Of a stretch of DNA of 30,965 bases, positions 8,755 through 29,525 are shown piece after piece (within the stretch, counting starts at the first letter, position 1; each line of letters begins with the position of its first letter). The notes under the pieces are model-generated. The model worked only from the letters and a program-made list of their open reading frames with translations. It did no database searches and was not told the origin of the DNA. A program made the position numbers and the translations under genes. Where the stretch lies: the UHGV virus genome UHGV-0305615, one strand, 5' to 3'. The DNA is from a virus.

Positions 8755-8755
8755 T

Positions 8756-13052: not shown

Positions 13053-13215
13053 GAACTGGAAGCAATGAGTTATGCCTTCCGTGGCTGTACTGGTTTACAG
13101 CATGAAGTCATCGCAATGGCGTCCTGCTGTAAAAAGGGCGGTGATAGTTCTTCAAGGGAAACCATCACCGCCAAGCACCTGGAACTTCTGGCATCACGGT
13201 CCTTAGGCGTGATTC

Positions 13216-13292
13216 TGGCGTGGCATGCAGGATTCGAACCTGCGACCAACCGCTTAGAAGGCGGTTGCTCTGTCCGACTGAGCTAATGCCAC
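13216..13292 (-). tRNA. tRNA-Arg (anticodon UCU)
   Basis: 77-nt minus-strand sequence GTGGCATTAGCTCAGTCGGACAGAGCAACCGCCTTCTAAGCGGTTGGTCGCAGGTTCGAATCCTGCATGCCACGCCA folds as a cloverleaf: 7-bp acceptor stem, GCTC/GAGC D-stem, ACCGC/GCGGT anticodon stem with loop CTTCTAA, GCAGG/CCTGC T-stem with TTCGAAT loop, encoded CCA. Confidence 0.9.
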
Positions 13293-13614
13293 AACGCTGA
13301 GAGCACTTAGCCTGTTAAGGCACCACACTTTGTCGCGGCTCCATAAATGCTCTCATCGTTGTACCCTCGTCTCTTCCGAGGCGTCACACCGAATCGCCGG
13401 GATGGTGAATCCCCGTGCGCGGAATAAAACCGCTCGACTTGCACATTCCGGCTACCTGGTTCGTTTGCCCGAGCAAGGGAGGGTGCCCCTTAAACGTATC
13501 CAGACCGCTATCGTCGCATGTGCCATACGCCGTACTGCTCAAAATAAAAGCTCACTCCACCTGTTCAATTTAACGACAAGCCAGTCAGGTTAGTAACCGG
13601 AATGAACTTTTTGG

Positions 13615-13629
13615 TTACCTGAAAGGTAA
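13615..13629. promoter_or_regulatory. Predicted operator (dyad TTACCTGAAAGGTAA) between tRNA leader and virion genes
   Basis: Exact dyad; a leftward TTGACA -35 (rc of 13646-13651) lies 17 bp away. Confidence 0.5.
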
Positions 13630-13719
13630 TAATTCGTGCGTTAAATGTCAACAGTCTACGATAAATAAATCATATGTGGTTAAATTGGTAATAATTTAAT
13701 TGCGTACGGAGTCATTGAT

Positions 13720-13926
13720 ATGTGCATGGGTAGCTCACCATCAGTGCCTGCAACACCAGAAGTTCAGGCAGCACCACAGGAGCAGGATGCCGCCGTTGTT
13801 GATGCCCGCGACGAAGAAACTCGTCGCCGTCGCGCTGCTGCTGGTCGTAGTTCTACGCTGCTTACCGGTTCTCAGGGCGACACATCAACCGCTAATACCA
13901 GCGGTAAAACGCTACTTGGTCAGTAA
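13720..13926 (+). CDS. Small hypothetical virion-module protein (68 aa), possibly T7 gp6.7-like
   Basis: GGAG RBS; begins MC..., Pro/Ala/acidic then basic; sits just upstream of portal. Homology is a recollection, not verified. Confidence 0.4.
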   Translation: MCMGSSPSVPATPEVQAAPQEQDAAVVDARDEETRRRRAAAGRSSTLLTGSQGDTSTANTSGKTLLGQ

Positions 13927-13940
13927 CCGGAGTCATTGAA

Positions 13941-15620
13941 ATGGCGGAAACAACTAAAGAGCGATTGAACAAACAGTTCGCACAACTTGAAAGCGAGCGT
14001 CAGTCGTTCGAGCCGCACTGGCGCGAGTTGAGTGATTACATCAACCCGCGTGGTTCCCGCTTTCTGACTTCTGAGGTCAACCGTAACGATCGACGCAATA
14101 CACGCATTATTGATTCGACCGGGACTATGGCGGCGCGCACTCTCGCCAGCGGCATGATGTCAGGCATCACAAGCCCCGCGCGTCCGTGGTTTCGCCTGGC
14201 TACGCCAGATCCTGAAATGATGGATTATGGCCCTGTTAAGTTGTGGCTTGAGGCGGTGCAGAACCGCATGAACGATATGTTCAATAAGTCGAATCTCTAT
14301 CAGTCGCTGCCGCAGTTATACGGAAGCCTCGGCACATACAGCACTGGTGCAATGGCAGTGCTGGAGGATGACGAGGACATCATTCGCACAATGCCATTCC
14401 CGATAGGCAGTTACTACCTGGCTAACTCACCTCGTGGCAGTGTGGACACCTGTTTTCGCAAGTTCTCTATGACTGTTCGTCAGCTTGTTCAGGAGTTCGG
14501 GCTAAATAACGTCAGCGAATCCGTAAAAAGCATGTGGGAAAGCGGCACCTACGAGAAGTGGGTTGAAGTGATGCATTCGGTTTACCCGAACATTGACCGC
14601 GATACATCGAAGCTGGATAGCAAGAACAAGCCATTCAAATCGGTTTATTACGAGGTTGGTGGCGATAACGACAAGTTGTTGCGTGAGTCCGGATTCGATG
14701 AGTTTCCAATTATGGCTCCGCGCTGGGAAGTTAACGGCGAAGATGTTTATGGATCATCATGCCCGGGTATGCTGGCGCTTGGACCTGTTAAGGCATTGCA
14801 GCTTCTCCAGAAGCGCAAGTCGCAGTTGATTGATAAAGCCACCAATCCGCCGATGATTGCTCCGACTTCCCTCAAGAATCAGCGTGCCTCCCTTCTTCCT
14901 GGCGACATCACGTATATCGATCAGATTACTGGTCAGGATAGTTTCAGGCCTGCTTATCTGGTTAACCCCAGTACAGCAGATTTGGTGGCAGACATTCAGG
15001 ACACTCGTCAAATCATTAACAGCGCCTACTTTGTCGATCTGTTCATGATGTTGCAGAACATCAATACCCGCTCGATGCCTGTTGAAGCGGTGATCGAAAT
15101 GAAAGAAGAAAAACTTCTGATGTTGGGGCCGGTTCTGGAGCGTCTGAACGACGAATGTCTTAATCCTCTCATTGACCGCGCTTTCTCGATGATGGTGCGT
15201 AAAAACATGCTGCCGCCACCACCTGACGCGATGGAAGGTATGCCCCTGAAGGTCGAATACATTTCCGTCATGGCTCAGGCGCAGAAGTCTATCGGCCTGT
15301 CCAGTCTGGCATCCACGGTCAACTTCATTGGTCAACTTGCGCAAGCGAAACCAGAAGCTCTCGACAAACTCAACGTTGATCAGGCGATCGATGCATTCGC
15401 TGATATGTCCGGAGTGTCTCCAACCGTCATTGTTCCGCAGGAACAGGTTGAGCAGGCTCGCCAGCAACGGGCACAGCAACAACAGCAGCAACAAATGATG
15501 GCGATGGGGATGGCGGCGGCACAGGGTGCCAAGACGCTAAGCGAAGCTAAAACTTCGGATCCGAGTGTTTTGTCAGCTATGGCGAATGCATTTAGTGGTC
15601 AGGGTGGGCAATCACAATGA
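13941..15620 (+). CDS. Portal protein, T7 gp8-like
   Basis: 559 aa; GGAG RBS; Gln-rich C-terminus (QQRAQQQQQQQMMAMGMAAAQ) and overall layout resemble the remembered T7 connector. Confidence 0.8.
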   Translation: MAETTKERLNKQFAQLESERQSFEPHWRELSDYINPRGSRFLTSEVNRNDRRNTRIIDSTGTMAARTLASGMMSGITSPARPWFRLATPDPEMMDYGPVKLWLEAVQNRMNDMFNKSNLYQSLPQLYGSLGTYSTGAMAVLEDDEDIIRTMPFPIGSYYLANSPRGSVDTCFRKFSMTVRQLVQEFGLNNVSESVKSMWESGTYEKWVEVMHSVYPNIDRDTSKLDSKNKPFKSVYYEVGGDNDKLLRESGFDEFPIMAPRWEVNGEDVYGSSCPGMLALGPVKALQLLQKRKSQLIDKATNPPMIAPTSLKNQRASLLPGDITYIDQITGQDSFRPAYLVNPSTADLVADIQDTRQIINSAYFVDLFMMLQNINTRSMPVEAVIEMKEEKLLMLGPVLERLNDECLNPLIDRAFSMMVRKNMLPPPPDAMEGMPLKVEYISVMAQAQKSIGLSSLASTVNFIGQLAQAKPEALDKLNVDQAIDAFADMSGVSPTVIVPQEQVEQARQQRAQQQQQQQMMAMGMAAAQGAKTLSEAKTSDPSVLSAMANAFSGQGGQSQ

Positions 15621-15913
15621 CAGATTACGAAGACGATCAACTGAAAGAAGAAAACGCCCGTAAGCAACGTGACATGGCACAGCGTGAAATTGATGACATT
15701 CGCTTTGTCATGAGCAGTGAACAGGGGCGTCGCGTTGTCTGGTCGGTGCTGGAGAAAGGCCGGGTGTTTTCCGCTATCTCTCCGATGGATGCTATGGCAA
15801 TGGCATTTAATGAGGGGCAACGCAATCTGGCGCTGGAACTGTTTCAGCGCGTTATGGCGCATTGCCCTGAACAGTATTTGAAGATGGCCAAAGAGGCCAG
15901 TGAACAGGAGTGA
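15617..15913 (+). CDS. Hypothetical head-module protein (98 aa)
   Basis: Complete ORF overlapping the portal stop. Confidence 0.55.
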   Translation: MTDYEDDQLKEENARKQRDMAQREIDDIRFVMSSEQGRRVVWSVLEKGRVFSAISPMDAMAMAFNEGQRNLALELFQRVMAHCPEQYLKMAKEASEQE

Positions 15914-15915
15914 TC

Positions 15916-16611
15916 ATGAATTTATTTGAGCGTTTGCTGTATCGCCGTCTTTGCAATGAGCAACCAGTTGATGGCGGAGCAGCTCCGGCTGCGTCAGAAC
16001 CGTCAGCGCCTGCAGGTGATAACCCTGCTCCAGTTGGTGATCCATCACAACTGGAAGGTGATAAGCCACAACCTGTTGCTGATGGCGATAAACCTGCTGA
16101 TGACAAAAAGCCTGAAAACGATAAGCAGGATGAAAAAAAGGACGGCGATAAACCAGAGGGTGCGCCTGAGAAGTACGAGTTTCAGGCTGCCGAAGGCGTA
16201 GAGCTGGATACAGAAGCGTTGAAGGAATTCGAGCCGGTGGCGCGAGAACTTAACCTGACCAACGAGCAAGCGCAAAAGCTGGTTGATGCTTATCCGAAGA
16301 TTCTGGCAGGTGTTCAGCAGCGCCAGGCAGAAGCCTGGCAGAAAACAACCGAGCAGTGGGCTGCGGATGTAAAAGCTGACAAAGAAATCGGTGGCGACAA
16401 GTTGATTTCTAACCTTAGCGCCGCACAGCGTGCGCTTGACCAGTTCGGGACACCTGAACTCAAAGAATATCTGAACACCACCGGACTGGGTAATCACCCT
16501 GATCTGGTCAAAACGTTCGTGAAAATCGGAAAGGCGATGTCTGAAGATGGCATGGTCACCGGTGGTAATGAAGGCCAGCGTAGTGCGGCCGAAGTGCTCT
16601 ATGGCAAATAA
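15916..16611 (+). CDS. Scaffolding protein
   Basis: ATG 15916 with AGGAG RBS; acidic, Pro/Asp/Lys-rich low-complexity N-terminus, helical C-terminus; located between portal and capsid. Confidence 0.65.
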   Translation: MNLFERLLYRRLCNEQPVDGGAAPAASEPSAPAGDNPAPVGDPSQLEGDKPQPVADGDKPADDKKPENDKQDEKKDGDKPEGAPEKYEFQAAEGVELDTEALKEFEPVARELNLTNEQAQKLVDAYPKILAGVQQRQAEAWQKTTEQWAADVKADKEIGGDKLISNLSAAQRALDQFGTPELKEYLNTTGLGNHPDLVKTFVKIGKAMSEDGMVTGGNEGQRSAAEVLYGK

Positions 16612-16625
16612 GAGAGGAAATGACA

Positions 16626-17612
16626 ATGGCTGTTAAAGGCTTAACTGCGCTAACGCTGGCTGACTGGGGTAAGCGCGTCGATCCAAACGGGAAAGTCGAT
16701 AAGATTATCGAGCTTCTCGGTCAAACTAACCCGATCCTTCAGGATATGCCTTTTGTCGAAGGGAACCTTCCTACCGGACACCGAACCACCATTCGTTCTG
16801 GTTTACCTTCAGCTACCTGGCGTTTGCTGAACTATGGCGTACAGCCAAGCAAATCAACCACAGTGCAGGTCACCGATTCCGTTGGCATGCTGGAAACCTA
16901 TGCTGAAGTCGATAAGTCACTGGCTGATCTGAACGGCAATACCGCCGAATTCCGCCTGTCTGAAGACCGAGCATTTATTGAAGCGATGAATCAGCAGATG
17001 GCGCAGACGCTGTTTTATGGTGATTCCAGCGTTAACCCTCAGCAGTTTATGGGACTGTCCTCCCGCTATTCCAGCCTGTCTGCGGGTAATGCTCAGAACA
17101 TCATTGATGCTGGTGGCACGGGTACAGATAACACCTCAATCTGGTTAGTGGTGTGGGGCGAAAACACCGTGCATGGCATCTTCCCGAAAGGGCAGAAGGC
17201 TGGCATCCAGATGGAAGATAAAGGCCAGGTGACACTGGAAGATGCTAATGGCGGCAAGTACGAAGGCTACCGTACCCATTACAAATGGGACAACGGACTT
17301 GCTCTGCGTGACTGGCGTTATGTTGTTCGCATTGCAAACATCGATGTCAGCAATCTTTCAGAACCTTCCTCTGCCGCAAATATTGCGAAGTTGATGGTTA
17401 AAGCACTACATCGCATTCCAAACCGTGGCATGGGCCGCCCGGTGTTCTACATGAACCGCACTGTAGGCCAGACTCTTGATCTGCAGTCTCTGGAGAAAAC
17501 ATCCCTGGCTATCAGCGTAAAAGAGACAGAAGGCGAGTGGTGGACTTCATTCCGTGGTGTACCAATCCGTGAAACTGATGCGCTTCTGGAAACAGAAGCC
17601 CGCGTGGTGTAA
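16626..17612 (+). CDS. Major capsid protein
   Basis: 329 aa; ATG 16626 with GAGG RBS; assignment by synteny (portal-scaffold-capsid). Confidence 0.65.
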   Translation: MAVKGLTALTLADWGKRVDPNGKVDKIIELLGQTNPILQDMPFVEGNLPTGHRTTIRSGLPSATWRLLNYGVQPSKSTTVQVTDSVGMLETYAEVDKSLADLNGNTAEFRLSEDRAFIEAMNQQMAQTLFYGDSSVNPQQFMGLSSRYSSLSAGNAQNIIDAGGTGTDNTSIWLVVWGENTVHGIFPKGQKAGIQMEDKGQVTLEDANGGKYEGYRTHYKWDNGLALRDWRYVVRIANIDVSNLSEPSSAANIAKLMVKALHRIPNRGMGRPVFYMNRTVGQTLDLQSLEKTSLAISVKETEGEWWTSFRGVPIRETDALLETEARVV

Positions 17613-17663
17613 CGCCTGTTATTAACCTGTGGGTCGTAACAGACCCACTAATGGAGAAAGAAG

Positions 17664-18101
17664 ATGATCACCGACAAACTGTTGATGTTCTCCGAAGCAC
17701 AGGCGGTAACTGATACCGCGGCTTCTACTGACGTAATCGATCTCGGTCCAATTGATGGGAAACGTCGTGATATCGGCGTGGGTTACCCGCTTGAGTTTTG
17801 GGCGCTGGTTAACACAGCCGCCGCAGCAAGCGGTGATGCAACTGTAAACATCCAGTTGCAGACGAGTGAGGATAACAGCTCATGGACCACTATTTATGAT
17901 AGTGGTGCACTGGCAAAGACCGCCCTGACAGCAGGTAAACGAGTTGTTTCTGCAAAGGTGCCTGCCGGTGTTCAGCGATATCTGCGTGTTAACTACTCCG
18001 TCGCAACTGGCCCACTAACGGCTGGCGAATTCACTGCTGGTATCAGTCTTGATGTTGATGCCAATACGCCGTATCCGATCCGCTCAAAAGTAACTGGTTA
18101 A
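17664..18101 (+). CDS. Hypothetical virion protein (145 aa), possible capsid decoration protein
   Basis: Complete ORF immediately after capsid gene. Confidence 0.5.
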   Translation: MITDKLLMFSEAQAVTDTAASTDVIDLGPIDGKRRDIGVGYPLEFWALVNTAAAASGDATVNIQLQTSEDNSSWTTIYDSGALAKTALTAGKRVVSAKVPAGVQRYLRVNYSVATGPLTAGEFTAGISLDVDANTPYPIRSKVTG

Positions 18102-18111
18102 GGTGATATCG

Positions 18112-18447
18112 ATGTCAGGTGAGAAACCAAGATACCGCGTTCTGCGCCTCTCTCATATCCATAACACTCTGTGGCCGGAGGGGGCAGAAATCGAATACGA
18201 AGGTGAGCCTGGTAGCGCACTGGAACCTGTTAACGATGCAGCCAGACAGGCAAAAGCAAAAGTTGCAGGAAAGGTGTCAATGGCAGCAACCAGCACCAAA
18301 ATCATCAACGATGTGTCAGATGATGGTGAACTGGATAAGCTCCGTGAAGAGTACGAATTGCTCTTTAACGAGAAGCCACACCATAACGCTAAAGCCGAAA
18401 CGCTCCGCGAGAAGATCGCAGATAAGCGTAAAGAACTAGGCGTGTAA
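18112..18447 (+). CDS. Hypothetical protein (111 aa)
   Basis: ATG 18112 with AAGGTGA RBS (track start 18103 is GTG). Confidence 0.5.
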   Translation: MSGEKPRYRVLRLSHIHNTLWPEGAEIEYEGEPGSALEPVNDAARQAKAKVAGKVSMAATSTKIINDVSDDGELDKLREEYELLFNEKPHHNAKAETLREKIADKRKELGV

Positions 18448-18464
18448 GCCTCGCGAATCCGACA

Positions 18465-18485
18465 AGGGGCTTCGGCCCCTTTATT
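18465..18485 (+). terminator. Rho-independent terminator / stable hairpin within virion operon
   Basis: AGGGGC-TTCG-GCCCCT hairpin followed by TTATT. Confidence 0.55.
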
Positions 18486-18497
18486 GCAGGAGTGTAT

Positions 18498-18821
18498 ATG
18501 GAACTCGTAAACCTCAAAACCGGCACTGACAGCTACCAGGATGAGAGCGGAGAAACCAGAACTCGCGATGAATACCCGTGGGGGCTGTGCATCACTCTTA
18601 ATAACGACACATTGAATAAGCTGAAGGCGCAACCTCAGGGCGTCGGAACAGAAGTGATGATAACTGCAAAAGCTGTTATTCGAGGCCTGTCTGCCAGAGA
18701 AACTGACGATGGTGTTAATCGCAGCGCCGATCTGCAGATCACTGATATGGCGATCGCTCCTGTTTCCGGGGATGTAGAAAAATCAGCGGCTGAAACTCTG
18801 TACGGTAACGGAGGTGAGTGA
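18498..18821 (+). CDS. Hypothetical protein (107 aa)
   Basis: ATG 18498 with AGGAG RBS. Confidence 0.5.
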   Translation: MELVNLKTGTDSYQDESGETRTRDEYPWGLCITLNNDTLNKLKAQPQGVGTEVMITAKAVIRGLSARETDDGVNRSADLQITDMAIAPVSGDVEKSAAETLYGNGGE

Positions 18822-19426
18822 TGGCCTCTGTAGTAGAGATCTGTAATCGTGCGCTGTCCAATATTGGCAACAGCCGCAGCATTAACAGCCTGACGGAAGC
18901 CAGCAAGGAAGCGGGGGAATGTTCGCTGCACTTTGAGGCCTGCCGTGATGCTGTGCTTTCTGATTTTGACTGGAACTTTGCTACCAAACGCGTGGCGCTT
19001 GCAGATACGAGCAATCCACCGCCTGACTGGGAATATGCGTATCAGTACCCGTCCGATTGTCTGCGCATTACTGAAATTATGCTTCCTGGTGTACGCAATC
19101 CAACAGCAGCAATGCGCGTTCAGTACGAAGTAGGTGTAGACACCAACGGAACAGGAAAGTTGATCTACACAGACCAGCCTCAGGCATGGCTCAAGTATGT
19201 CTCTCGCGTTACAGATGTGAACATGTTTGATGCCATTTTTATGGAGGCGTTGGCCTGGCGTCTTGCGGCAGCTATTAACATGGCGCTGACTGGGAATGCA
19301 GACCTCGGTACATTTGCTCTCAATATGTACAATCGCGTGATTCTTAGTGCTGGCTCGCATAGCCAGAATGAATCACAGGAACCACAGCCACCGGTTGACG
19401 AGTTTACCATTGCGAGGTTGTCCTGA
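18821..19426 (+). CDS. Tail tubular protein A / gatekeeper, T7 gp11-like
   Basis: ATG overlaps previous TGA; N-terminus MASVVEICNRALSNIGNSRSINSLTE resembles remembered gp11 N-terminus. Confidence 0.6.
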   Translation: MASVVEICNRALSNIGNSRSINSLTEASKEAGECSLHFEACRDAVLSDFDWNFATKRVALADTSNPPPDWEYAYQYPSDCLRITEIMLPGVRNPTAAMRVQYEVGVDTNGTGKLIYTDQPQAWLKYVSRVTDVNMFDAIFMEALAWRLAAAINMALTGNADLGTFALNMYNRVILSAGSHSQNESQEPQPPVDEFTIARLS

Positions 19427-21897
19427 TGGCTATCAGTTGGATCCAGCCCAGCTTTGCCGGTGGTGAGATTGGACCGTCGTTGTATGGGCGTATTGACATG
19501 GCGAAGTACCAGGTGGCATTGCGCAAGTGCGATAACTTTATCGTGCGGCAGTATGGCGGCGTTGAGAATCGACCTGGTACGCGTTTTGTCGGTGCCGCCA
19601 AATATCCAAATCGGAAATGCCGCCTGATCCCGTTCCAGTTCTCGACGGTTCAGACCTATGCTCTGGAGTTCGGACACCAGTACATGCGCGTTATCAAAGA
19701 TGGTGCGTTGGTGCTGAACAGCAGCAATGTTATTTATGAAATTGCCACGCCATATACTGAAGCCGATCTGTTCCGAATTAAATTCACGCAAAGCGCCGAC
19801 GTGCTTACGCTGGTTCATCCGGCATACCCGCCGAAAGAGTTGCGCCGCTATGCGCATGACAACTGGCAACTGGTTGATGTGGTAACGAAGAACGGGCCAT
19901 TTGAAGATATCAATATTGACGAGTCAGTGACGGTTTATGCCAGCGCCAGCACCGGGACAATTACGTTAACGGCAAGCGCCTCTATTTTTGGCGCGGAGCA
20001 GGTAGGCAAATTGTTCTATCTGGAACAGCCTGCAGTGGATTCAGTACCGGTATGGGAAACCAGCAAGAGTACGTCGATTGGCGATATTCGCCGTGCAGAC
20101 AGTAACTACTATCGCGCCGTTACAGCAGGCAAAACAGGCACTTTGCGCCCTTCGCATACAGAAGGCACATCATGGGATGGCTGGGGCGGATCCGGTGATG
20201 ATGATACTGGCATTGAGTGGGAGTATCTGCACAGTGGTTTTGGCATTGCCCGTATCACGGCTGCAAATGGCACTACTGCAACTGCTGAGGTGATTTCCTA
20301 TATCCCTTCGCAGGTCGTTGGCGAGGATAATGCCAGCTATAAATGGGCTAAATATGCCTGGAACAGTGTTAATGGTTATCCTGGCACTGTTGTTTATTAT
20401 CAACAACGTCTTTACTTCGCCGCATCGACTGCGTTCCCTCAGACTATCTGGGCCAGCCGTACTGGGGATTATAAGGATTTTGGCAAAAGCAATCCTACGC
20501 AGGATGACGACAGAATTATCTACACCTATGCCGGGCGTCAGGTTAATGAGATCCGCCACCTGATTGATGTTGGTTCGCTGGTAGCGCTGACTTCCGGAGG
20601 TGAGTACGTCATCACTGGCGACCAGAACAAAGTGTTAACCCCATCATCATTTGCATTCAGCTCTCAGGGATCAAATGGCTCGAGCAATGTCCCACCAATT
20701 GCCGTGGCGAATATTGCTCTGTTCGTCCAGGAGAAAGGCAGTGTTGTCCGTGATCTGGCCTACTCATTCGATGTTGACGGCTATCAGGGGAACGACCTGA
20801 CCATCCTTGCCAATCATCTTTTTCAGAAGCACAGCATTGTTGACTGGTGCTTCTCTATTGTCCCTTACTCCAGCGCCTTCTGCATTCGTGATGACGGTAA
20901 ATTACTGGTGATGACCTATTTGCGTGATCAGCAGGTTTTTGCATGGGCACCACAATCCAGTACCGGAAAATATGAAAGCACATGCAGTATCAGCGAAGGA
21001 AATGAAGATGCGGTGTATTTCGTCGTTAACCGAACCGTTAACGGGCAAACAGTGAGATACATCGAGAGACTGTCCAGCCGTTTATTTACCAGCGATGAAG
21101 ATGCTTTCTTTGTTGATTCTGGCCTTAGCTATGATGGAAGAAATACGTCTGACAGAACGATGACCATCACTGGTGGTTCTGGCGAATGGGATTACCGCGC
21201 GGAATATACAATCAGTATTTCTGGCGGTGCGTACTTCACCAGTAGTGATGTCGGTGCGCAACTACAGTTCCCTTATACCGGAACTGCTCCTGATACTGGC
21301 GATGAAGTGTCAAAAGAATTACGTTGCGACATTATTTCTGTAACCAGCAACACCGCTGTAGTGGTTCGTGCTAACAGGAACGTCCCGCCATCCCTCAGGA
21401 ATGTGGCCACCACGAACTGGCAGATGGCGCGCCGGGCATTTGGCGGCTTGTCTCATCTTGAAGGTCAGACCGTAAACATCCTCTCTGATGCGAACGTGGA
21501 ACCACAGAAAGTAGTTTCCGGAGGTGCCGTCACGCTGGAATCACCGGGGGCTGTAGTGCACATCGGCCTGCCAATAACTGCTGAATTCGAAACACTGGAT
21601 ATCAACATTAACGGGCAGGAAACGCTGCTGGACAAAAAACAGGTGATCCCATCCGTTACTCTGGTTGTGAATGCCAGCCGCGGCATCTGGGCGACTACGC
21701 CCGGCGGTAAATGGTACGAATATCCACAGCGTGAATTCGAGTTCTACGATGATCCTGTTGATGACGCTACCGGAAAAGTAGAAGTGAAACTGGACAGTAA
21801 CTGGGGCAAAAACGGACGTGTAAGAATCCGTCAGCTTGACCCGTTGCCACTGTCTGTTCTTGCCGTTATTCCTCGCCTTACTGTTGGGGGATTCTGA
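19426..21897 (+). CDS. Tail tubular protein B / nozzle, T7 gp12-like
   Basis: 823 aa; N-terminus MAISWIQPSFAGGEIGPSLYGR parallels remembered gp12 MALISQSIKNLKGGISQQP; size close to T7 gp12 (794 aa). Confidence 0.65.
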   Translation: MAISWIQPSFAGGEIGPSLYGRIDMAKYQVALRKCDNFIVRQYGGVENRPGTRFVGAAKYPNRKCRLIPFQFSTVQTYALEFGHQYMRVIKDGALVLNSSNVIYEIATPYTEADLFRIKFTQSADVLTLVHPAYPPKELRRYAHDNWQLVDVVTKNGPFEDINIDESVTVYASASTGTITLTASASIFGAEQVGKLFYLEQPAVDSVPVWETSKSTSIGDIRRADSNYYRAVTAGKTGTLRPSHTEGTSWDGWGGSGDDDTGIEWEYLHSGFGIARITAANGTTATAEVISYIPSQVVGEDNASYKWAKYAWNSVNGYPGTVVYYQQRLYFAASTAFPQTIWASRTGDYKDFGKSNPTQDDDRIIYTYAGRQVNEIRHLIDVGSLVALTSGGEYVITGDQNKVLTPSSFAFSSQGSNGSSNVPPIAVANIALFVQEKGSVVRDLAYSFDVDGYQGNDLTILANHLFQKHSIVDWCFSIVPYSSAFCIRDDGKLLVMTYLRDQQVFAWAPQSSTGKYESTCSISEGNEDAVYFVVNRTVNGQTVRYIERLSSRLFTSDEDAFFVDSGLSYDGRNTSDRTMTITGGSGEWDYRAEYTISISGGAYFTSSDVGAQLQFPYTGTAPDTGDEVSKELRCDIISVTSNTAVVVRANRNVPPSLRNVATTNWQMARRAFGGLSHLEGQTVNILSDANVEPQKVVSGGAVTLESPGAVVHIGLPITAEFETLDININGQETLLDKKQVIPSVTLVVNASRGIWATTPGGKWYEYPQREFEFYDDPVDDATGKVEVKLDSNWGKNGRVRIRQLDPLPLSVLAVIPRLTVGGF

Positions 21898-22361
21898 TGA
21901 TCGATGTTCGAATTGTTCCCGCTACCGAAGAGCATCTTCAGATGATTTTGCCGGATGTTCGTCAGGCTGATATTGACGAACTGTATGCGGTATCACTGAT
22001 GACTACCGAAGATGCGCTGCGTGTTGGTCTGCGTACTGCGACTATGGCCTGGTCAGGATTTGCGAACGGAGAACTGGTAACCATGTTTGGCGTATCTCCG
22101 GCGTCAATGATCGGTGGCAATGGTACGCCCTGGCTGGTCGGAACCAGCCGTATCGAAAAATATCAGAAGACATTTCTTCGCCACTGCCGCCCTGTATTGC
22201 AGCAGATGCTGGCAGTTTATCCGCGCCTGGAAAACTATGTCGACGAGCGAAACCATGTTGCCAAAGCATGGCTGCACTGGCTTGGATTCAGGCTTGAAGA
22301 AGCCGCGCCTTATGGTGCTCTTGGTCTTAATTTCCACAGATTTCACATGGAGAGAAAATAA
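21897..22361 (+). CDS. Hypothetical virion-associated protein (154 aa), in the position of T7 gp13
   Basis: TGATG overlap with previous gene. Confidence 0.5.
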   Translation: MIDVRIVPATEEHLQMILPDVRQADIDELYAVSLMTTEDALRVGLRTATMAWSGFANGELVTMFGVSPASMIGGNGTPWLVGTSRIEKYQKTFLRHCRPVLQQMLAVYPRLENYVDERNHVAKAWLHWLGFRLEEAAPYGALGLNFHRFHMERK

Positions 22362-22936
22362 TGTGCGATCCGGTTATTGCTGGTGGCGCAATGCTCGCTA
22401 TGAGTGGCATTCAGGCATACACCCAGTACCAACAGGGAAAGTATGCCTCGAAGGTTGCAGAAGCGAACGCAGATATAGCCACAGCTCAGGCAAATGATGC
22501 AATAAACAGAGGTAACGCTGAAGCTGAGCAACGGCGCAGAGAGACCCGACAGCGGCTTGGTACACAGGCGGCGACAATGGGGGCTACCGGCGCTGATTTA
22601 TCTACAGGTAACGCGCTGGATATATTTGGCGACACTGCCCAGTTTGGCGCTCTTGATTCTCTGACAACGGTGAATAACGCGCAACGCGAGGCTTACGGTT
22701 ATCAGGTTCAGGCTGCCAACTATAAAGCAGAAGCCAGTTCAGCCCGTAAACAGGGGAATGTGGGAGCAGCAACAACTTTACTCACTGCGCCTCTGAAGGC
22801 ATACGGTGCGTACCAGATGTTTGGTGGGACGTGGAGTCCGTTCTCTAAAGGAAGTACATCTAGTGGTGGGACGCCAATGTTATCTAACTCAGGTTTTATG
22901 AATTCTGACTCCCGATTCAAAATAGGAGGTTACTGA
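22361..22936 (+). CDS. Internal virion protein, T7 gp14-like
   Basis: 191 aa; begins MC..., Ala/Gln-rich; TAATG overlap with previous gene. Confidence 0.5.
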   Translation: MCDPVIAGGAMLAMSGIQAYTQYQQGKYASKVAEANADIATAQANDAINRGNAEAEQRRRETRQRLGTQAATMGATGADLSTGNALDIFGDTAQFGALDSLTTVNNAQREAYGYQVQAANYKAEASSARKQGNVGAATTLLTAPLKAYGAYQMFGGTWSPFSKGSTSSGGTPMLSNSGFMNSDSRFKIGGY

Positions 22937-25683
22937 TGCCAGTTGTACCAACAACATCGGGACGCCAGGTGCAAAGTCGTGGTGTGCAAACCGGTGGTTT
23001 TCAGACCTTCGATGTTCCTCAAGCAGGTCAGGTGCTGGCGAATGTCGCAGATCAGTATGCGGTGGCATATGGTGAAGCCAGGCAGAAAGCGAATGTTGCT
23101 ATGGCCCAGGAGGCGTTACTGCAATTTAACCAATTTGCAGATGACCAGATTAACAACCCTGAAAATGGGCTGATTTCTAAACAGGGTAAAAACGCTCTTG
23201 GTCAGAGTGACGCTGTTATGAAAAATATGCAGGAAAGGGCTCAGGCATTATTAGGCTCAATTCCTGAAAGTGAGGAAAGGAATAAATTATCCTTTCAACT
23301 CCAGAAGTCTATGCAGTCTTATTACAATCAGGCACGTCGATATGAAGTTGGGCAGTTTCAGCAATTCCAAGATCAAACGTATTTGTCAGGAAATGCATTG
23401 GCTGTCACTCAGTCTGCGGGGCTATATAGCGATAACCAAGCATTTGTCGATTTAGCCAAGCAGCGATTTGAATCTATTGATCAATACGCTGATGCGCATG
23501 GGCTTCCTGATGAGTGGCGTGTTCAGCAGAAAACTCAGCTCAAGGAACAAATGGGGCAGCAAGCATGGATAGGAAATATCGCTCAAAAATACAACGAGTT
23601 TCTTCAGGTTAATGGAGAGCCAGGGGATCTTGATGGTGTGAGTCGCGCAATATCACATGGTAATTCATTGGATGCTCGTGGTTTACGTAATAATAACCCT
23701 GGTAATATTGAAGCGAGCAAATCTAACCCGTGGGAAGGTCAGATCGGTAGCGATGGACGTTTTGCAACGTTTGCTACCCCTGAGCATGGAATCCGCGCGT
23801 TGGGTAAAAATATGTTGTCTTACCAGCGTCAAGGCTATGACACCGTTAGCGAGATTGTTAATCGCTATGCTCCGGCTAGTGATGGTAATAATACTGATGC
23901 TTATATTAGGGCATTGTGTGGTGAGCTTGGTGTTGGGGAGAATGATCAGCTTGATATCTCTAACCCAAAGACACTAGCTGCTTTATGTGCTGGGATTATT
24001 AAACACGAAAATGGCAGTATGCCTTATAGCACCGAACAGCTTGAAACTGGTATCTCGGCAGCCCTTGGTCTAACTAACCTTGATTCACCTAAGCGTTATA
24101 CGGGCAATGCGGCATTTGATGCTATGAGCCCTCAAATGCAAATACAGGCATTGAGGCAGGCTAATGAGCTGAGAAATCAGTACCGCCAGCAGTATGCGGA
24201 CCAGCTTAGCACCGTAGTTAAAGATGCATATTCAGCCCTTGATGAAGGATTGAAACCTGAGAAGTTACCTTCTGAGGACGATTTTATCCGGGCCAATGGT
24301 CCGCGCATTGGCGCTATGAAGTGGAAGGATATGCAGGCGCAGATACAATATGGAGGTGTCATTGGTGCCGCTAAAGACCTCACTCCAGAAGGACGACAAG
24401 ACATTCTTGAACGTTTACGTCCACAGGATCCAAACGCTCCTGGATTTGCAGCTAACCAGCAACGCTGGGAGAAAATGCAGGCCAAATTTAAAGAGATGGA
24501 TAGGGAGTGGGAGATTCAGCAGGGAAGAAACAGGTTCGTGTCTTCAATGCAAAATAACTTCCCGCTGGACCCGAACGACAAAAACAATCAGGCAGCGGTA
24601 GACCGCTATTTCGCGCAGGATATCGCGCCTTCGTTTTCCATATCTGATCCGCAGAGCATCAATACACTGGTCACCGTCACAACTAAAAGCGGCATGATAC
24701 CAACTCAGGTTAAAACAATGCTTAACAGTGGAGCAACATCAAGAGATCCTGCGCTGGTTGTCCCGATGGCAAAATTCTACGGTCAGTTATTCGATAATAA
24801 TCCGGCGGCAGCGGCAACACTTGATAAAAGTACGATGGCATTTTACGGCAAGGTTTACGATTATTCCCGCGCTGGCGTGCCGGAGGATAAGGCTGTTGAT
24901 ATGGCTTACAGCCAGGTGTTCCAACAGGATGACCGAATGAAACAGATGCTTTCCACTGCCATGCGAGACAAAAAATATGTCGCGGCGAGGGCAACTGCTG
25001 CACAAAATAACGCCAGCAGTCTGACTTCCTTTGGTTCGTGGTCTCCGGATATTACCGATCCAGGAAAATCAAATGCGGCCTATCAGCGAGATTACCAGAC
25101 AATTTACGATGCTAACTTTGTACAGACAGGTGGCGATGCAGAACAGGCTGAGAAAATGACCAATGCCATGATCAGAACCACCTGGGGAGTTTCTACGGTT
25201 AATGGCAAAGCAGAGGTTATGAAGTATGCACCTGAGGCATTGTACGGAGTAAATAATGGTGCTGGTAACTGGATACAGGGGCAGTGGGAGCAGGAAAAAC
25301 GCGAGCTTAAATCAAAATCCTTTGGCGGTCCTCGCAGTGATACGGACTTAATACTTGTTTCTGATGGCCTTACGGCAAGGGATAGGAGTTATGCTGTTAT
25401 GGTTTTACAGCCTGACGCAAACGGAGCGATAGAACCGAGAAATTATATTGGAGAAAATGGTCTCCCTGTTCGTTTCAAGCCGGATCAGCTGACATCTCCA
25501 ATGTACAGGCAAACCATTCAGTTCCAGCAACAGCGTGTTGATGAGGCTAGAGTGCGGAGAGAAGGCAATCCGCTGCCGCAGTTCAGCAATAAAGATGGAT
25601 ATACTCCTCCAGATCTGACCAAACCATTCGGTTATGGTTCAGCCAATTACCTTCCGAGCAATATATACGCAGGGGGCAAATAA
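22936..25683 (+). CDS. Internal virion (ejection) protein with putative cell-wall hydrolase-like segment, gp15-position
   Basis: 915 aa; AGGAGG RBS; segment GLRNNNPGNIEASKSNPWEGQIGSDGRFATF... looks like a lysozyme-like domain (recollection). Confidence 0.55.
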   Translation: MPVVPTTSGRQVQSRGVQTGGFQTFDVPQAGQVLANVADQYAVAYGEARQKANVAMAQEALLQFNQFADDQINNPENGLISKQGKNALGQSDAVMKNMQERAQALLGSIPESEERNKLSFQLQKSMQSYYNQARRYEVGQFQQFQDQTYLSGNALAVTQSAGLYSDNQAFVDLAKQRFESIDQYADAHGLPDEWRVQQKTQLKEQMGQQAWIGNIAQKYNEFLQVNGEPGDLDGVSRAISHGNSLDARGLRNNNPGNIEASKSNPWEGQIGSDGRFATFATPEHGIRALGKNMLSYQRQGYDTVSEIVNRYAPASDGNNTDAYIRALCGELGVGENDQLDISNPKTLAALCAGIIKHENGSMPYSTEQLETGISAALGLTNLDSPKRYTGNAAFDAMSPQMQIQALRQANELRNQYRQQYADQLSTVVKDAYSALDEGLKPEKLPSEDDFIRANGPRIGAMKWKDMQAQIQYGGVIGAAKDLTPEGRQDILERLRPQDPNAPGFAANQQRWEKMQAKFKEMDREWEIQQGRNRFVSSMQNNFPLDPNDKNNQAAVDRYFAQDIAPSFSISDPQSINTLVTVTTKSGMIPTQVKTMLNSGATSRDPALVVPMAKFYGQLFDNNPAAAATLDKSTMAFYGKVYDYSRAGVPEDKAVDMAYSQVFQQDDRMKQMLSTAMRDKKYVAARATAAQNNASSLTSFGSWSPDITDPGKSNAAYQRDYQTIYDANFVQTGGDAEQAEKMTNAMIRTTWGVSTVNGKAEVMKYAPEALYGVNNGAGNWIQGQWEQEKRELKSKSFGGPRSDTDLILVSDGLTARDRSYAVMVLQPDANGAIEPRNYIGENGLPVRFKPDQLTSPMYRQTIQFQQQRVDEARVRREGNPLPQFSNKDGYTPPDLTKPFGYGSANYLPSNIYAGGK

Positions 25684-28600
25684 TGCCGATATATGAACAG
25701 GATCCTAAAGAGTTGCTTGGCGAGGATATTCAGCAAATAGCAGCACCTGATGACAGTAATTTCTATATGGAAACACCTTCTTTGCTTTCTGCTGTGAACC
25801 CATTTACCAGTGATCAACGCGTTCAAAGGTCTAGACAAGCAGCATTTCGTATAGATAACACGCTGGGTAGCTTTATTGCCAGTGCTCCTTTCAGTCAGTT
25901 TGACAGGGTTGAAGGATATAACCCATTTGATAACGATGCAGCAGATATTAAAGGCTATGAAGATTTTGCAGATTCGTTTATCAACTCCGGTTCGCATGAA
26001 GAAACAATGGCAATTAAACATCGAATCGATAAGCAAAGAACAGATAGAGAATATCTATCTGAAATGGGTGGTGCTGGTACTATTTCAAGCTTAGCAATGG
26101 GAATGATAGACCCGGTTAATGTGGCTGCAATGTTCATCCCTGTAGGGGCGGTAGCGCGTGGAGGAAGTATTGCTGAGACGGCAGGGCGTTTTGCCCTGGC
26201 GAATGCTGCTGGTGGGGGAGTATCAGAAGCCGCATTACAGGCCACTCAGGAAGCTCGCTCACCGATGGAGAGCGTATCGAACGTTGTTGTTGATGCTCTC
26301 GTTGGTGGGATCCTTGGTGCTGGTGCACAGCTACTTGCTGGACCTAGCGCGCGCGAGGCAGTGGTTAACTCAGTAGGTAATCATTTGAGAGGTATGGATT
26401 CTCCTCAAAGCATTGGTGCAGCTCAGGTTTTCAATACCACACTCGATCAGGAACAGCTCGCTGGACTTGGACTTGCTAACAAAACGTTGAGTGTCACTCC
26501 TGCTGGCCGCTTGGCTCAATCACCATCTCTTGTCTCCCGTCAGATTAACCAGCAGCTTGCCGAAAATAACTATTTCTTCGCCAAAAATGATGAGGGGTTG
26601 GCTACGTTTACGGCAGTCGAGACTAAGATTAAGCAATACGACGCCATGCTTTATAAGCAGATGGAAGCCACTCGTGATGCTTACCAGCAGTACAGCAAAT
26701 CTGTTAGCGCCCGCGGCGTGAAGAGGATGAACTTTATTGATTTCAATGAAGCTGTTGGCATGGCTATGCGCCGTGGTGATCAGAGTGATATTCCTGAGGT
26801 TTCACAAGCAGCCGCCAGAATCCGCCCCATTTTTGAGACCACAAAAGCCCGTATGCAGGAACTGGGGATCCTTCCTGAGGATATCGATGTCGTGACGGCG
26901 AAAAGTTATCTTCCCCGCATTTATAAGTTCGATAAGATACTTTCCGACCGCACTGAATTCAGAGGGCGAATTGCCAACTGGATACAAGGGATTAGTGCCA
27001 AAGGTGCTGACAAAGCAGGTCAGCGAATTGAAAGGATAAATTCATTGCTAAAAACTGCAGAGGAATCGGCACCGCGCGCTGATGCTCTCGCTAGTGAAAT
27101 CGCTGAAGCGGAGAAATGGTCTGGTAAAAAAATTCTACTCATGGAAGAACTGGATAAACGAAATAAGCTTATATCTCAGGAGACTGACACACAGGCGCGT
27201 CTTACAAGAATAGAAAAAGAGTTGGCCGAGACTTCATCAGAAAAACTTCAGGCAAGAATGATGAAAGAAAGTTCTGACCTTAAAACACGCCTTGATGATA
27301 TAGCGCAGGCAAAGAGTGAGCTTCCTGTCTATCAGCGCCATATGGAGTTGCTGGATAATCCACGGAAATATCGTTCTGAGCTTCGCCGACTGCAAAAACG
27401 GGCAAATTCAACCACAAGGCTGAATGCAAGCCGCGAACGAGCACTGAAGCAGATGGAGCCTCTATCCCGAGAGGAAGCAGAGGACGCTGCTGACGAGATC
27501 GTGAATAAAATAATAGGCGCACCTTCCGGGCTTGTACCAGCCGATATTATCCCAGAGAGACTCGTTGGTCGGGCTGGTTTCACTAAAAGCAGAACGCTGC
27601 TTATTCCTGATGAGCGTATAGAAGATTTTCTTGAATCAGATGTTAACTACATCATGGAAAGTTATCTCCGGCAGGTGGCACCAGAAATTGAGCTGACTGC
27701 GCAGTTTGGCCGTAAAGATATGGGGGAGCAAATCCGTCAGGTTAGTGAGGAATATACCCGGCTAATAAAAGAGGCTAAAACACCTAAACGACGTGCAGTT
27801 CTTGAGAAGCAACGGGAGGCTGATATTAGGGATATTACGGCTATGCGTGATCGACTGCTTGGTACTTACGGTGCACCTCAAGATCCACGCAGTTTCTTTG
27901 TTCGTGCCGGGCGAGTTGCTAGGAATATTAACTTCCTCCGTTTGCTTGGTGGAATGACTGTCTCCGCTGCAACTGATCTGATGCGACCGATGATGCAGCA
28001 TGGCCTGAGAAAATCTCTCGGACCAATGGTAAGCATGCTTAAAAATATGGACTCAGTGAAAATTGCAACCAGGGATTTGCGAGAAATGGCCGTTGGGCTT
28101 GATTATGTCCTGTCTACGCGTACAAAGGCTATAGCGGATCTTACTGACCCCTATAGCCGGAGAAGCGCCGCTGAGCGAGGTCTGAACTGGATGACGCAGA
28201 AATTCGGTAACTGGACGCTGATGAATCAGTGGAACAGCGCACTTAAATCATGGTCCGGGATTATAGTGCAGTCGAGGATACTTGACGCGGCTCGCCAAGT
28301 TTCTGCTGGTGGCACGCTCTCCAAAAGTGAAATGCGGAAGATGGCACAGGTCGGCATCAATGAAGATGTTCTGCGCCGAATCGGGGAGCAATTCGGGAAG
28401 CACGGAGAGGATATGGACGGGCTGTTAACCGGGCATAGTCATCTGTGGGATGACCGTTTCGCTAGAGAGATTTTCCAGTCTGCAGTGCTGAAAGATGTAG
28501 ACTCAGTGATTGTAACGCCTGGCGTAGGTGATACACCGCTGTTTTTTAGTAAAGAAGGCTGGAAGATGATCACGCAGTTCAAAACGTTTATCTTCGCACA

Positions 28601-29072
28601 GCATAACAGGGTGCTAGTATCTGGTATCCAGCAGGGCGATGCTGCATTCTATCTTGGTGCGCTTGGCACGATTGCGCTTGGCTCAATGGTCTATATGATG
28701 AAACAGAAGTTAAGCGGTCGCGATATCGACTACAGCTGGAATAACCTTGTGAAAGAGGGGATCGACCGGGGCGGAATGCTTGGCTGGCTCTCTGAGCCGC
28801 TGAATACCGTTGAGAACATAAGCGGCGGTAGGTTTGGTCTTGGCGCGATGTTTGGTGCGCCTCCGGTATCAAGGTTTCAGAGTCGTAATGCTATTGGTGC
28901 TTTACTTGGTCCTACCTTTGATCTTGGCGGTGATGCCGCGACGGTTGCGAATGGTGTACTTAACGGAGAATTTGACAGCCAGCAAACCCACGCGGTCCGT
29001 AAAATGCTACCTTTTCAGAACCTGTGGGCGATATCACCGTTACTAAATAAAGTTGAAGAGCAGATGAAATAG
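25683..29072 (+). CDS. Large internal virion / ejection protein, gp16-position
   Basis: 1129 aa; TAATG overlap with previous gene; call from size and position. Confidence 0.55.
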   Translation: MPIYEQDPKELLGEDIQQIAAPDDSNFYMETPSLLSAVNPFTSDQRVQRSRQAAFRIDNTLGSFIASAPFSQFDRVEGYNPFDNDAADIKGYEDFADSFINSGSHEETMAIKHRIDKQRTDREYLSEMGGAGTISSLAMGMIDPVNVAAMFIPVGAVARGGSIAETAGRFALANAAGGGVSEAALQATQEARSPMESVSNVVVDALVGGILGAGAQLLAGPSAREAVVNSVGNHLRGMDSPQSIGAAQVFNTTLDQEQLAGLGLANKTLSVTPAGRLAQSPSLVSRQINQQLAENNYFFAKNDEGLATFTAVETKIKQYDAMLYKQMEATRDAYQQYSKSVSARGVKRMNFIDFNEAVGMAMRRGDQSDIPEVSQAAARIRPIFETTKARMQELGILPEDIDVVTAKSYLPRIYKFDKILSDRTEFRGRIANWIQGISAKGADKAGQRIERINSLLKTAEESAPRADALASEIAEAEKWSGKKILLMEELDKRNKLISQETDTQARLTRIEKELAETSSEKLQARMMKESSDLKTRLDDIAQAKSELPVYQRHMELLDNPRKYRSELRRLQKRANSTTRLNASRERALKQMEPLSREEAEDAADEIVNKIIGAPSGLVPADIIPERLVGRAGFTKSRTLLIPDERIEDFLESDVNYIMESYLRQVAPEIELTAQFGRKDMGEQIRQVSEEYTRLIKEAKTPKRRAVLEKQREADIRDITAMRDRLLGTYGAPQDPRSFFVRAGRVARNINFLRLLGGMTVSAATDLMRPMMQHGLRKSLGPMVSMLKNMDSVKIATRDLREMAVGLDYVLSTRTKAIADLTDPYSRRSAAERGLNWMTQKFGNWTLMNQWNSALKSWSGIIVQSRILDAARQVSAGGTLSKSEMRKMAQVGINEDVLRRIGEQFGKHGEDMDGLLTGHSHLWDDRFAREIFQSAVLKDVDSVIVTPGVGDTPLFFSKEGWKMITQFKTFIFAQHNRVLVSGIQQGDAAFYLGALGTIALGSMVYMMKQKLSGRDIDYSWNNLVKEGIDRGGMLGWLSEPLNTVENISGGRFGLGAMFGAPPVSRFQSRNAIGALLGPTFDLGGDAATVANGVLNGEFDSQQTHAVRKMLPFQNLWAISPLLNKVEEQMK

Positions 29073-29513
29073 CTATTCACAATTAGTGATGGCGTATGTA
29101 TCAAATATATTGCCATCACTAAATACATACCTATACTCAATCTCTCCGCCAAGGTGAATAAATGCTTTCATTTGCCTGTTGGAGCAAATGCTCGATTTTG
29201 AATAATTTCGCATTACACTCTTTAATTTATTTTCTAAGGTTACATCACCATTATAAACTTTTGATAAATAGCTGTTGTTGTAATTAAGATGCGCTACAAC
29301 TAAAAGTTTGTTTAGTATTGCATTTATTGAAACAATAGACATATTATCATTCAATTTTATGGGAAGTGACTTTCCTGCTTCTGATGCAATTTTGTTTGCA
29401 TGTGCACACATATCCTCATTTATTAAATTCTTAAAACATATGTCGTTTGCAAACGAAAAAATTGGTAGGATAAACAAAACGGTAGCTGTAATAGCGTGCA
29501 TCGGCTTAATCAT
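29073..29513 (-). CDS. Hypothetical secreted protein (146 aa) with N-terminal signal peptide, AT-rich cargo gene
   Basis: MIKPMHAITATVLFILPIFSFA then NDICF...; 4 Cys; coding DNA roughly one-third GC versus ~50% in flanks. Confidence 0.55.
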   Translation of the reverse strand: MIKPMHAITATVLFILPIFSFANDICFKNLINEDMCAHANKIASEAGKSLPIKLNDNMSIVSINAILNKLLVVAHLNYNNSYLSKVYNGDVTLENKLKSVMRNYSKSSICSNRQMKAFIHLGGEIEYRYVFSDGNIFDTYAITNCE

Positions 29514-29525
29514 TAGGTGACCTTT

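Follow-up and report, generated by a model that had tools for sequence, protein, structure and literature searches.

In the viral genome UHGV-0305615, a stretch of 30,965 nucleotides (nt) that we analyzed at its full length and refer to as the window, positions 13720 to 29072 are occupied by a block of virion genes. We are highly confident that this block represents the late (virion) operon of a temperate podophage of the epsilon15/phiV10 type (Uetakevirus-like) of Enterobacterales. The window was assigned to this type because of its DNA matches and because of collinear orthologues in epsilon15. The block belongs to an already described kind of phage, and its architecture is that of an old published lineage, not of a fresh chimera. 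An initial annotation of the sequence had proposed a T7-like podoviral virion module embedded in a lambda-like temperate backbone. The observation behind this proposal was confirmed, and its interpretation was partly supported.

The block comprises 14 co-oriented open reading frames (ORFs) on the plus strand, and every ORF listed for it was found at its coordinates. Neighboring genes share 1-4 nt at 15617/15620 and at the junctions from 18821 on, in agreement with the tight overlaps noted initially. Promoter-like sites were rarer in 13720-29072 than expected by chance (13 versus 23 ± 4.5), and this depletion fits a single long late operon. Gene identities and family memberships were established with Pfam and PHROGs as sources of protein families and are as follows (aa, amino acids).

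13720-13926, plus strand: 68-aa protein starting with Met-Cys (phrog_831, E 2e-36), orthologue of epsilon15 gp3
13941-15620, plus strand: portal, 559 aa (PF12236, E 2e-187)
15617-15913, plus strand: Bbp19-like head-module protein, 98 aa (PF25181, E 3e-17)
15910/15916-16611, plus strand: scaffold-like protein, 233/231 aa (phrog_458, database label "protease")
16620-17612, plus strand: major capsid protein, 330 aa (PF20911 GP7, E 4e-149)
17664-18101, plus strand: Bbp16-like cement/decoration protein, 145 aa (PF21190, E 7e-47)
18103-18447, plus strand: small conserved protein, 114 aa (phrog_590, E 4e-61), orthologue of epsilon15 gp9
18492/18498-18821, plus strand: gp10-like "capsid staple", 109/107 aa (PF21628, E 1e-51)
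18818/18821-19426, plus strand: head-to-tail adaptor, 202/201 aa (phrog_394), resembling T7 gp11 / tail tubular protein A at the fold level
19426-21897, plus strand: tail nozzle, 823 aa (phrog_376; PDB 8ck1_A, E 3e-217), probable equivalent of T7 gp12 / tail tubular protein B
21897-22361, plus strand: gp13-like protein (internal virion protein A), 154 aa (phrog_308, E 1e-62)
22361-22936, plus strand: gp14-like protein (internal virion protein B), 191 aa (PF24072 T7_gp14, E 4e-8)
22936-25683, plus strand: protein in the gp15 position, 915 aa (phrog_1044/992), with an Enc34-type peptidoglycan hydrolase domain
25683-29072, plus strand: gp16-like protein (internal virion protein D), 1129 aa (phrog_342, E 2e-235)

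In megablast searches against a reference set of 50,697 phage records, Escherichia phage EC.W1-9 showed 97.8% DNA identity across 98% of the block, with 98% identity over 18821-29072 including both large ejection proteins. The phages phiV10, TL-2011b, ZX5, PAS61, phiv142-3, and HEMP4 were approximately 98% identical over 13720-22842, and for TL-2011b and HEMP4 an identity of approximately 97% extended over 10389-22842 (to 23132 in TL-2011b). Tyrion, PAT1/65FD, and one Klebsiella prophage showed 76-82% DNA identity to the block. The region 1160-13719 of the window matched the same phages as the virion block, and the gene order in the Escherichia phages EC.W1-9, phiV10, TL-2011b, vB_EcoP_ZX5, PAS61, and HEMP4 (Uetakevirus or unclassified relatives) is that of the window. 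Nucleotide identity to recognized Uetakevirus-like members was therefore high over the matched regions of a window that is itself incomplete.

When the 14 block proteins were compared by BLASTP with epsilon15, the type species of Uetakevirus, 13 collinear matches with 36-88% identity were obtained, corresponding to the orthologues gp3 to gp15. The portal (81%), adaptor (85%), nozzle (88%), and gp14 (77%) are well conserved, and lysogeny, recombination, and replication genes are laid out in the same manner. The annotations of TL-2011b, EC.W1-9, and epsilon15 agree with an orthologous syntenic late operon from gp3 to gp14. Epsilon15 possesses three large proteins (gp15, gp16, and gp17), whereas the window encodes two. 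Podovirus morphology and a temperate lifestyle have been shown in the literature for near-identical phages. Transmission electron microscopy revealed for EC.W1-9 a head of 60 nm with a non-contractile, very short tail (bioRxiv 10.1101/2024.06.28.601134) and for ZX5 a 60 nm head with a 15 nm tail; ZX5 is a temperate phage whose integration site is the 3′ end of guaA (PMC9782041). Together with the lack of tape-measure or tube genes in the window, these micrographs provide indirect evidence for the short tail proposed in the initial annotation.

Several results weigh against the assignment or against its T7-like component. The window as given is not a complete functional genome, because tailspike, lysis, and integrase genes are missing and its ends join inside a Bro-N gene. 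The assignment of the 231-aa protein as scaffold conflicts with its database label "protease." When all 14 proteins were compared with T7 gp6.5-gp19 by BLASTP and phmmer, no pair reached significance, and hhalign found no match between the adaptor family alignment and T7 gp11. Comparison of the gp15-like alignment with T7 gp15 by hhalign yielded 180 collinear columns at a non-significant E value of 0.054. The N-terminal similarities to T7 gp11 and gp12 described in the initial annotation could thus not be reproduced.

The relationship to T7 becomes visible only at the level of Pfam/PHROG families and of folds. Scanning the T7 proteins with the same libraries identified four families in common, namely PF12236 (portal), phrog_308 (gp13), PF24072 (gp14), and phrog_342 (gp16). 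The Pfam families of T7 gp6.7, gp9, gp10, gp11, and gp12 were not matched by any window protein even at E ≤ 10. The profile comparison with the T7 gp8-gp16 families that had been suggested at the outset gave shared families for portal, gp13, gp14, and gp16, and no shared Pfam family for capsid, scaffold, adaptor, and nozzle. The order portal, scaffold, capsid, adaptor, nozzle, gp13, gp14, gp15, gp16 is the same in T7 and the window, with gp15 being recognized by Foldseek alone. T7 differs from the window in having no counterpart of three small head genes (Bbp19, Bbp16-like, and gp10-like), in carrying its terminase at the genome end and not 5′ of the portal gene, and in encoding an RNA polymerase and T7-type replication genes, both of which are missing from the window, whose lifestyle is temperate. 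The description as a T7-like virion module holds for portal, adaptor, nozzle, and the gp13-, gp14-, gp15-, and gp16-like proteins. It does not hold for the head half, which has a PF20911 capsid protein, no PF05396 member, and three additional head genes. The gp13 homologue, these three small genes, the non-T7 capsid family, and the hydrolase domain of the 915-aa protein had been overlooked initially.

For the tail genes, sequence searches of the PDB matched the connector and nozzle of Cobetia phage Carin-1 (whose portal, connector, nozzle, capsid, and decoration proteins are in entries 8CK0, 8CK1, and 8CJZ) and orf17 and orf18 of Legionella phage LME-1 (9EFK). The portal, adaptor, and nozzle of both phages resemble those of T7 (PMC12407071). 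At the fold level, the adaptor resembled adaptors of the "tail tubular protein A" type from other podophages. The nozzle is homologous over its full length to the Carin-1 "Tail Nozzle" (8ck1_A), also matches LME-1 9efk_M, and is the orthologue of epsilon15 gp12, for which a match to T7 gp12 with E < 1e-10 was reported from a comparison of hidden Markov models (PMC4819975). In Pfam searches up to E ≤ 10, the nozzle gave no direct match to PF25675 and the adaptor none to PF17212, and NCBIfam searched up to E ≤ 1 likewise yielded no Tube, nozzle, or gp6.7 family for the proteins still unassigned.

The ejection proteins gp13, gp14, gp15, and gp16 follow in that order. The gp13-like protein shares phrog_308 with T7 gp13 (E 1e-42 for the latter) and shows a weak match to PF11090 (E 0.088), which is below the curated cut-off. 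RefSeq notes on epsilon15 gp13 and annotations of BPP-1-type phages (bbp24; PMC4819975) suggest that gp13 (internal virion protein A) is folded like a GNAT acetyltransferase, and in BPP-1 the GNAT gene lies 5′ of the portal gene instead of 3′ of the nozzle gene. The gp14-like protein begins with MCDPVIAGGAM, confirming the Met-Cys start noted initially, has a hydrophobic N-terminus, and matches PF24072, the family of T7 gp14, with 33.7 bits at a cut-off of 27. Two very large proteins do occupy the gp15 and gp16 positions, as stated in the initial annotation, and apart from them no gene of tape-measure size is present in the block, as that annotation had also pointed out.

Foldseek searches with a model of the 915-aa protein retrieved the T7 ejectosome/core entries 7k5c, 9jyy, 6yt5, and 7eyb. 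This is moderate evidence that this large helical ejection protein is the equivalent of T7 gp15; internal virion protein C was also reported not to be confirmable by sequence (Hardies et al., PMC4819975). Residues ~247-399 of the protein (nt ~23674-24132) form a hydrolase domain matching the Enc34 endolysin. The gp16-like protein matches phrog_342 from profile position 192 to 1227 of 1235, whereas T7 gp16 covers positions 4-1227. Since its match begins at position 192, the gp16-like protein lacks the N-terminal SLT (transglycosylase) domain. T7 carries an SLT domain at the N-terminus of gp16, and the window an Enc34-type hydrolase inside the gp15-like protein. A relocation of the hydrolase to the gp15 homologue has already been described for phages of the K1E/K1-5 type (PMC8954989). 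Near its C-terminus, the translated gp16-like protein contains a hydrophobic segment (...AAFYLGALGTIALGSMVYMM...). Sequence searches of the PDB with the gp14-like and gp16-like proteins found nothing.

The first gene of the block encodes a 68-aa protein that starts with MCMGSSPSVP and is 88% identical to epsilon15 gp3. Its Met-Cys start and C-terminal TLLGQ are kept in the distant relatives L098 and L101. It did not match PF17570 (T7 gp6.7) even at E ≤ 10, and only by its position, size, and Met-Cys start is it a possible analogue of the T7 core protein gp6.7. A Met-Cys start was present on both the 68-aa and the gp14-like protein in every relative examined (including L098, L101, L102, L104, and L105), and T7 gp6.7 and gp14 also begin with Met-Cys.

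The head half of the block is not of the T7 type. The portal belongs to the family of T7 gp8 (PF12236, E 3e-113 for T7 gp8). The profiles phrog_332 and phrog_449 cross-match reciprocally for the two portals, and the window portal matches that of Carin-1 (PDB 8ck0_A, E 2e-179). The Gln-rich C-terminus mentioned in the initial annotation was evident in the translation (...QARQQRAQQQQQQQMMAMGMAAAQ...). The capsid protein is a member of the epsilon15 gp7/BPP-1 Bbp17 family, a variant of the HK97 fold, and belongs to PF20911 and not to PF21703, the T7 family. It matched BPP-1 (PDB 3j4u_A, E 1e-128), Carin-1 (8cjz_Y), and epsilon15 gp7 (3j40_A), and it scored higher with BPP-1 than with epsilon15 (432 versus 291 bits). 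The scaffold-like protein had no Pfam match at E ≤ 10, including PF05396. The Bbp19-like protein is 66% identical to epsilon15 gp5, and the gp9-like protein (18103-18447) 40% identical to epsilon15 gp9. The Bbp16-like protein matches the cementing protein of BPP-1 (3j4u_H, E 4e-26) and the capsid decoration protein of Carin-1 (8cjz_B, E 1e-21). BPP-1 (Rauchvirus), Carin-1, and LME-1 have the portal, Bbp19, scaffold-like, GP7 capsid, Bbp16 cement, adaptor, and nozzle families in common with the window, and their solved structures served as structural templates, but they infect other hosts and show far lower sequence identity to it. The terminase genes are located 5′ of the portal gene (Terminase_2 small subunit, 10406-11080; large subunit, 11077-12552), and the capsid and terminase of epsilon15 have been grouped with siphovirus lineages (Hardies et al., PMC4819975). 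A siphovirus or myovirus module was considered and rejected. Neither tape-measure nor tail-tube families, as expected for a lambda/HK97-type head with a long tail, were found, and the portal, capsid, adaptor, and nozzle proteins all belong to types known from podophages.

The gp10-like protein, named "capsid staple protein" by NCBI, matches PDB 3j40_N (E 2e-21). It has been modeled only in the epsilon15 entry 3J40 (4.50 Å according to a RefSeq note), whereas the solved capsid decoration in BPP-1 and Carin-1 is the Bbp16 homologue. The staple gene is precisely missing from EC.W1-9, where window positions 18497-18820 correspond to 14611-14619 in otherwise 96-98% identical DNA. It is also absent from the distant loci L098 and L101; among four diverse scaffold-protein loci that were looked up, these two had no staple gene and the other two lay on contigs that were too short. 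Because it is absent from the plaque-forming EC.W1-9 and from two distant relatives, the staple gene seems to be dispensable in some relatives. In BPP-1, which is known for a tropism-switching retroelement, a gp10-like gene (bbp20) is located directly 3′ of the portal gene (PMC3863775).

These head and tail genes also bear on the possibility that the block is the virion module of a P22-like (Lederbergvirus-type) lambdoid podophage. In favor of it, the phage is a temperate enterobacterial podophage whose early region is lambdoid and whose genes include a Terminase_2 small subunit and ejection proteins, and the epsilon15 gp14 and gp16 homologues are nearer to P22 in the trees of a review (PMC8954989). 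However, the portal falls into PF12236 and not into the family of P22 portals, the capsid is built from a GP7/BPP-1-type protein, the nozzle is homologous over its full length to that of Carin-1, and no P22-like phage occurred among the top DNA matches listed. We therefore regard a P22-like module as extremely unlikely.

The early region is lambdoid in style and partly also by family. A lambda P family protein (PF06992, E 2e-56) is encoded at 6924-7724, and a 194-aa HTH_3 repressor (4815-5399, minus strand) faces a 76-aa plus-strand ORF without family match (5554-5784). RecT, a PDDEXK RecE-like nuclease, and an MT-A70 methylase are also present. The initiator encoded at 6151-6942 has DnaT (PF17948) and HTH_36 domains and is not a lambda O protein (PF04492), so that the proposed lambda-type O/P replication applies to P and not to the initiator. 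No single-subunit RNA polymerase was found, the window having no ORF of at least 600 aa outside 19426-29072. Together, the early lambda P protein, CI-type repressor, and RecT/RecE-like genes and the late T7-family portal, gp13, gp14, and gp16 homologues could be explained by a recent chimera, in which the structural module of a T7-like lytic phage had recombined into a lambda-type prophage. However, pairwise identity to T7 is undetectable, the head genes and the terminase belong to non-T7 families, and the content and largely also the order of the late genes are kept in epsilon15, phiV10, Tyrion, PAT1, BPP-1, BcepC6B, and metagenomic relatives, a lineage that has already been described (PMC4819975). 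The recent-chimera explanation, to which we assign a very low probability, is effectively refuted. The initial description as a mosaic is thus justified with respect to the lambdoid early elements, but the combination it referred to is not a one-off; Uetakevirus and BPP-1-like relatives, a lineage already described, have this architecture in conserved form.

Real mosaicism was found within the epsilon15/phiV10-type lineage, where two cassettes are exchanged as units, namely the capsid-shell cassette and the ejectosome cassette (gp14 C-terminus, gp15-like, and gp16-like proteins). Compared to epsilon15, DNA identity is ~75-80% over 13700-16568, 40-58% over 16569-18899, and ~80% over the adaptor and nozzle genes, and it drops again from 22784 on. 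The divergent stretch 16569-18899 spans the 3′-terminal ~45 nt of the scaffold gene and the capsid, Bbp16-like, gp9-like, and gp10-like genes, and in epsilon15 the products of this cassette, including the last scaffold residues, are only 36-43% identical to those of the window. Compared to TL-2011b and phiV10, DNA identity is 97% up to position 23132, followed by none until 29967. In amino acid sequence, the two large proteins share 29% and 32-42% identity with TL-2011b gp37 and gp38, and the gp14-like protein departs from its phiV10 and TL-2011b counterparts in the last ~28 residues, which mark the boundary of the swapped cassette. Thus, phiV10, TL-2011b, ZX5, and PAS61 carry another allele of the ejectosome cassette from ~23132 on, whereas the allele of the window (22784-29072) is common to EC.W1-9 and shows ~81% DNA identity to Klebsiella prophages.

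Downstream of the block, positions 29073-29975 contain a two-gene cassette of low GC content (37.6%), which is followed by a terminator-like hairpin (29989-30006) and looks like a moron. Its minus-strand gene (phrog_8772) codes for 146 aa with an N-terminus resembling a signal peptide, and its plus-strand gene (phrog_9944) codes for 152 aa. EC.W1-9 has another gene at this site.

With respect to the state of the window, joining its end to its start (30909-30965 plus 1-627, minus strand) generates an intact ORF of 228 codons for a protein of the Bro-N/antirepressor type. In TL-2011b, the adjacent coordinates 33328-33479 and 33480-33692 match the window end and the window start, respectively. 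Contiguous matches of complete Escherichia coli genomes across the junction stop at window position 216, and the junction as a whole is found in none of them. A putative repressor/cro-like pair is present in the window, and genes for integrase, tailspike, holin, and endolysin are not; tailspike, lysis cassette, and integrase are present in EC.W1-9, TL-2011b, and epsilon15. The EC.W1-9 preprint states that this phage has no integrase, yet both an integrase and a repressor appear in its GenBank annotation (34301-35551), a discrepancy that matters because the phage has been proposed for therapy.

The window is probably either a contig that was circularized or collapsed at a ~216-bp repeat of two Bro/Ant paralogues, or a deletion derivative. 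In our view there is an even chance that the 30,965-bp element goes back to a Uetakevirus genome of ~39-40 kb, of which it would be a defective derivative with a deletion or a collapsed assembly, and that it is not inducible although its virion module is intact. The restored Bro-N ORF, the adjacent TL-2011b matches, the end of the E. coli matches at position 216, and the absence of tailspike, lysis cassette, and integrase argue for it. On the other side, the window may just be a rotated or trimmed contig, and its 14 intact virion ORFs are 97-98% identical to those of plaque-forming phages.

The identity of the block as a late operon of the epsilon15/phiV10 type includes a predicted scaffold function for the 231-aa protein, which in PHROGs and GenBank is labeled "protease" or "endoprotease." No protease family was matched in Pfam (to E ≤ 10) or NCBIfam (to E ≤ 1). 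An exhaustive search returned 13,770 cluster representatives matching the protein at E ≤ 1e-3. In an alignment of 30 sequences, the N-terminal third was variable, acidic, and of low complexity, whereas the core was conserved, with invariant Y, A, W, D, L, P, and D residues, one near-invariant His, and no invariant Ser or Cys. The lack of a protease family and of an invariant Ser or Cys, together with the location of the gene between the portal and capsid genes, makes scaffold the better reading of this sequence, and the protein is more likely a scaffold than a protease.

The scaffold-like protein and the staple have similar C-termini that co-vary between phages, an observation that may be new. 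The former ends with RSAAEVLYGK (window 16575-16611), and the staple ends in the same peptide (window 18780-18821; ...SAAETLYGNGGE, in a longer form ...KSAAETLYGNGGE). In epsilon15, the orthologous scaffold ends with SAFYPKK and the staple with DAFYPDGEDD. The corresponding scaffold/staple pairs are SAAEVLYG/SAAETLYG in the window, RRLYAASNM/QRLYGASSM in BPP-1, and NRMYP/ARMYA in CP2. Both proteins end with xAxx[LFM]Y[GPA] in seven independent lineages (the window group, epsilon15, BPP-1, zth2-2, ctQRb9, Caulobacter Jess A, and Xanthomonas CP2). Pairs from the same genome were more alike than pairs from different genomes, with a summed BLOSUM62 score of 93 versus a permutation mean of 27 (standard deviation 22). 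The observed sum was reached in 13 of 5040 permutations, and in 22 of 5040 when both anchor residues were removed. Three further enterobacterial loci agreed (AFYP/AFYP twice and AEVIYG/AEVMYG once); the overall pattern is xAxx[LFMI]Y[GPA]. IMG/VR contained 330 viral contigs with a relative of the staple, of which the 80 that were kept were essentially identical (79 at 100% and one at 99% identity) and too alike for an analysis of covariation. On its left side, the capsid cassette begins just 5′ of the scaffold C-terminal peptide, so that the peptide falls within the part that diverges between the window and epsilon15.

Tentatively, the shared ending might represent a transferable capsid-docking peptide, by which two unrelated proteins would recognize one site on the GP7-type capsid protein, although we consider this rather doubtful at present. 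Such a peptide would act by analogy to the cargo-loading peptides of encapsulins or the capsid-targeting sequences of T4.

From the homologies described above, we infer the following pathway, including the stoichiometries, the ejection steps, and the role of the scaffold. A dodecameric T7-type portal would nucleate a procapsid, as suggested by homology to solved relatives, and this procapsid would be built from the BPP-1/epsilon15-type HK97-fold capsid protein with the aid of the acidic scaffold-like protein. The shell would be strengthened by the Bbp16-type cement protein and, in the phage represented by the window, would also bear the gp10-type staple. A 12-mer of the gp11-type adaptor and a 6-mer of the gp12-type nozzle would form the short tail, with the tailspikes being encoded beyond the window. 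Inside the head, the gp13-, gp14-, gp15-, and gp16-like proteins would stack on the portal, perhaps together with the 68-aa gp6.7 analogue. At infection, this stack would be ejected, the predicted hydrolase domain of the gp15-like protein would digest peptidoglycan, and the ejected proteins would rebuild as a trans-envelope DNA channel, as in T7.

The assignment re-identifies a common and described family of temperate podophages of Enterobacterales and is by itself of little importance. It does provide correct labels for the tail and ejectosome genes, namely adaptor, nozzle, and internal virion proteins A-D in place of "hypothetical," "endolysin," or "head protein," and the exchange of the capsid-shell and ejectosome cassettes shows which parts of the virion co-evolve. 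If the shared C-terminal peptide is a docking signal, the staple would be recruited via the binding site of the scaffold, possibly inside the procapsid. This would reopen the question of which small protein, the Bbp16-like or the gp10-like one, is the external decoration in epsilon15-type capsids, and the peptide would offer a simple handle to load proteins into, or display them on, capsids of the BPP-1/epsilon15 type.

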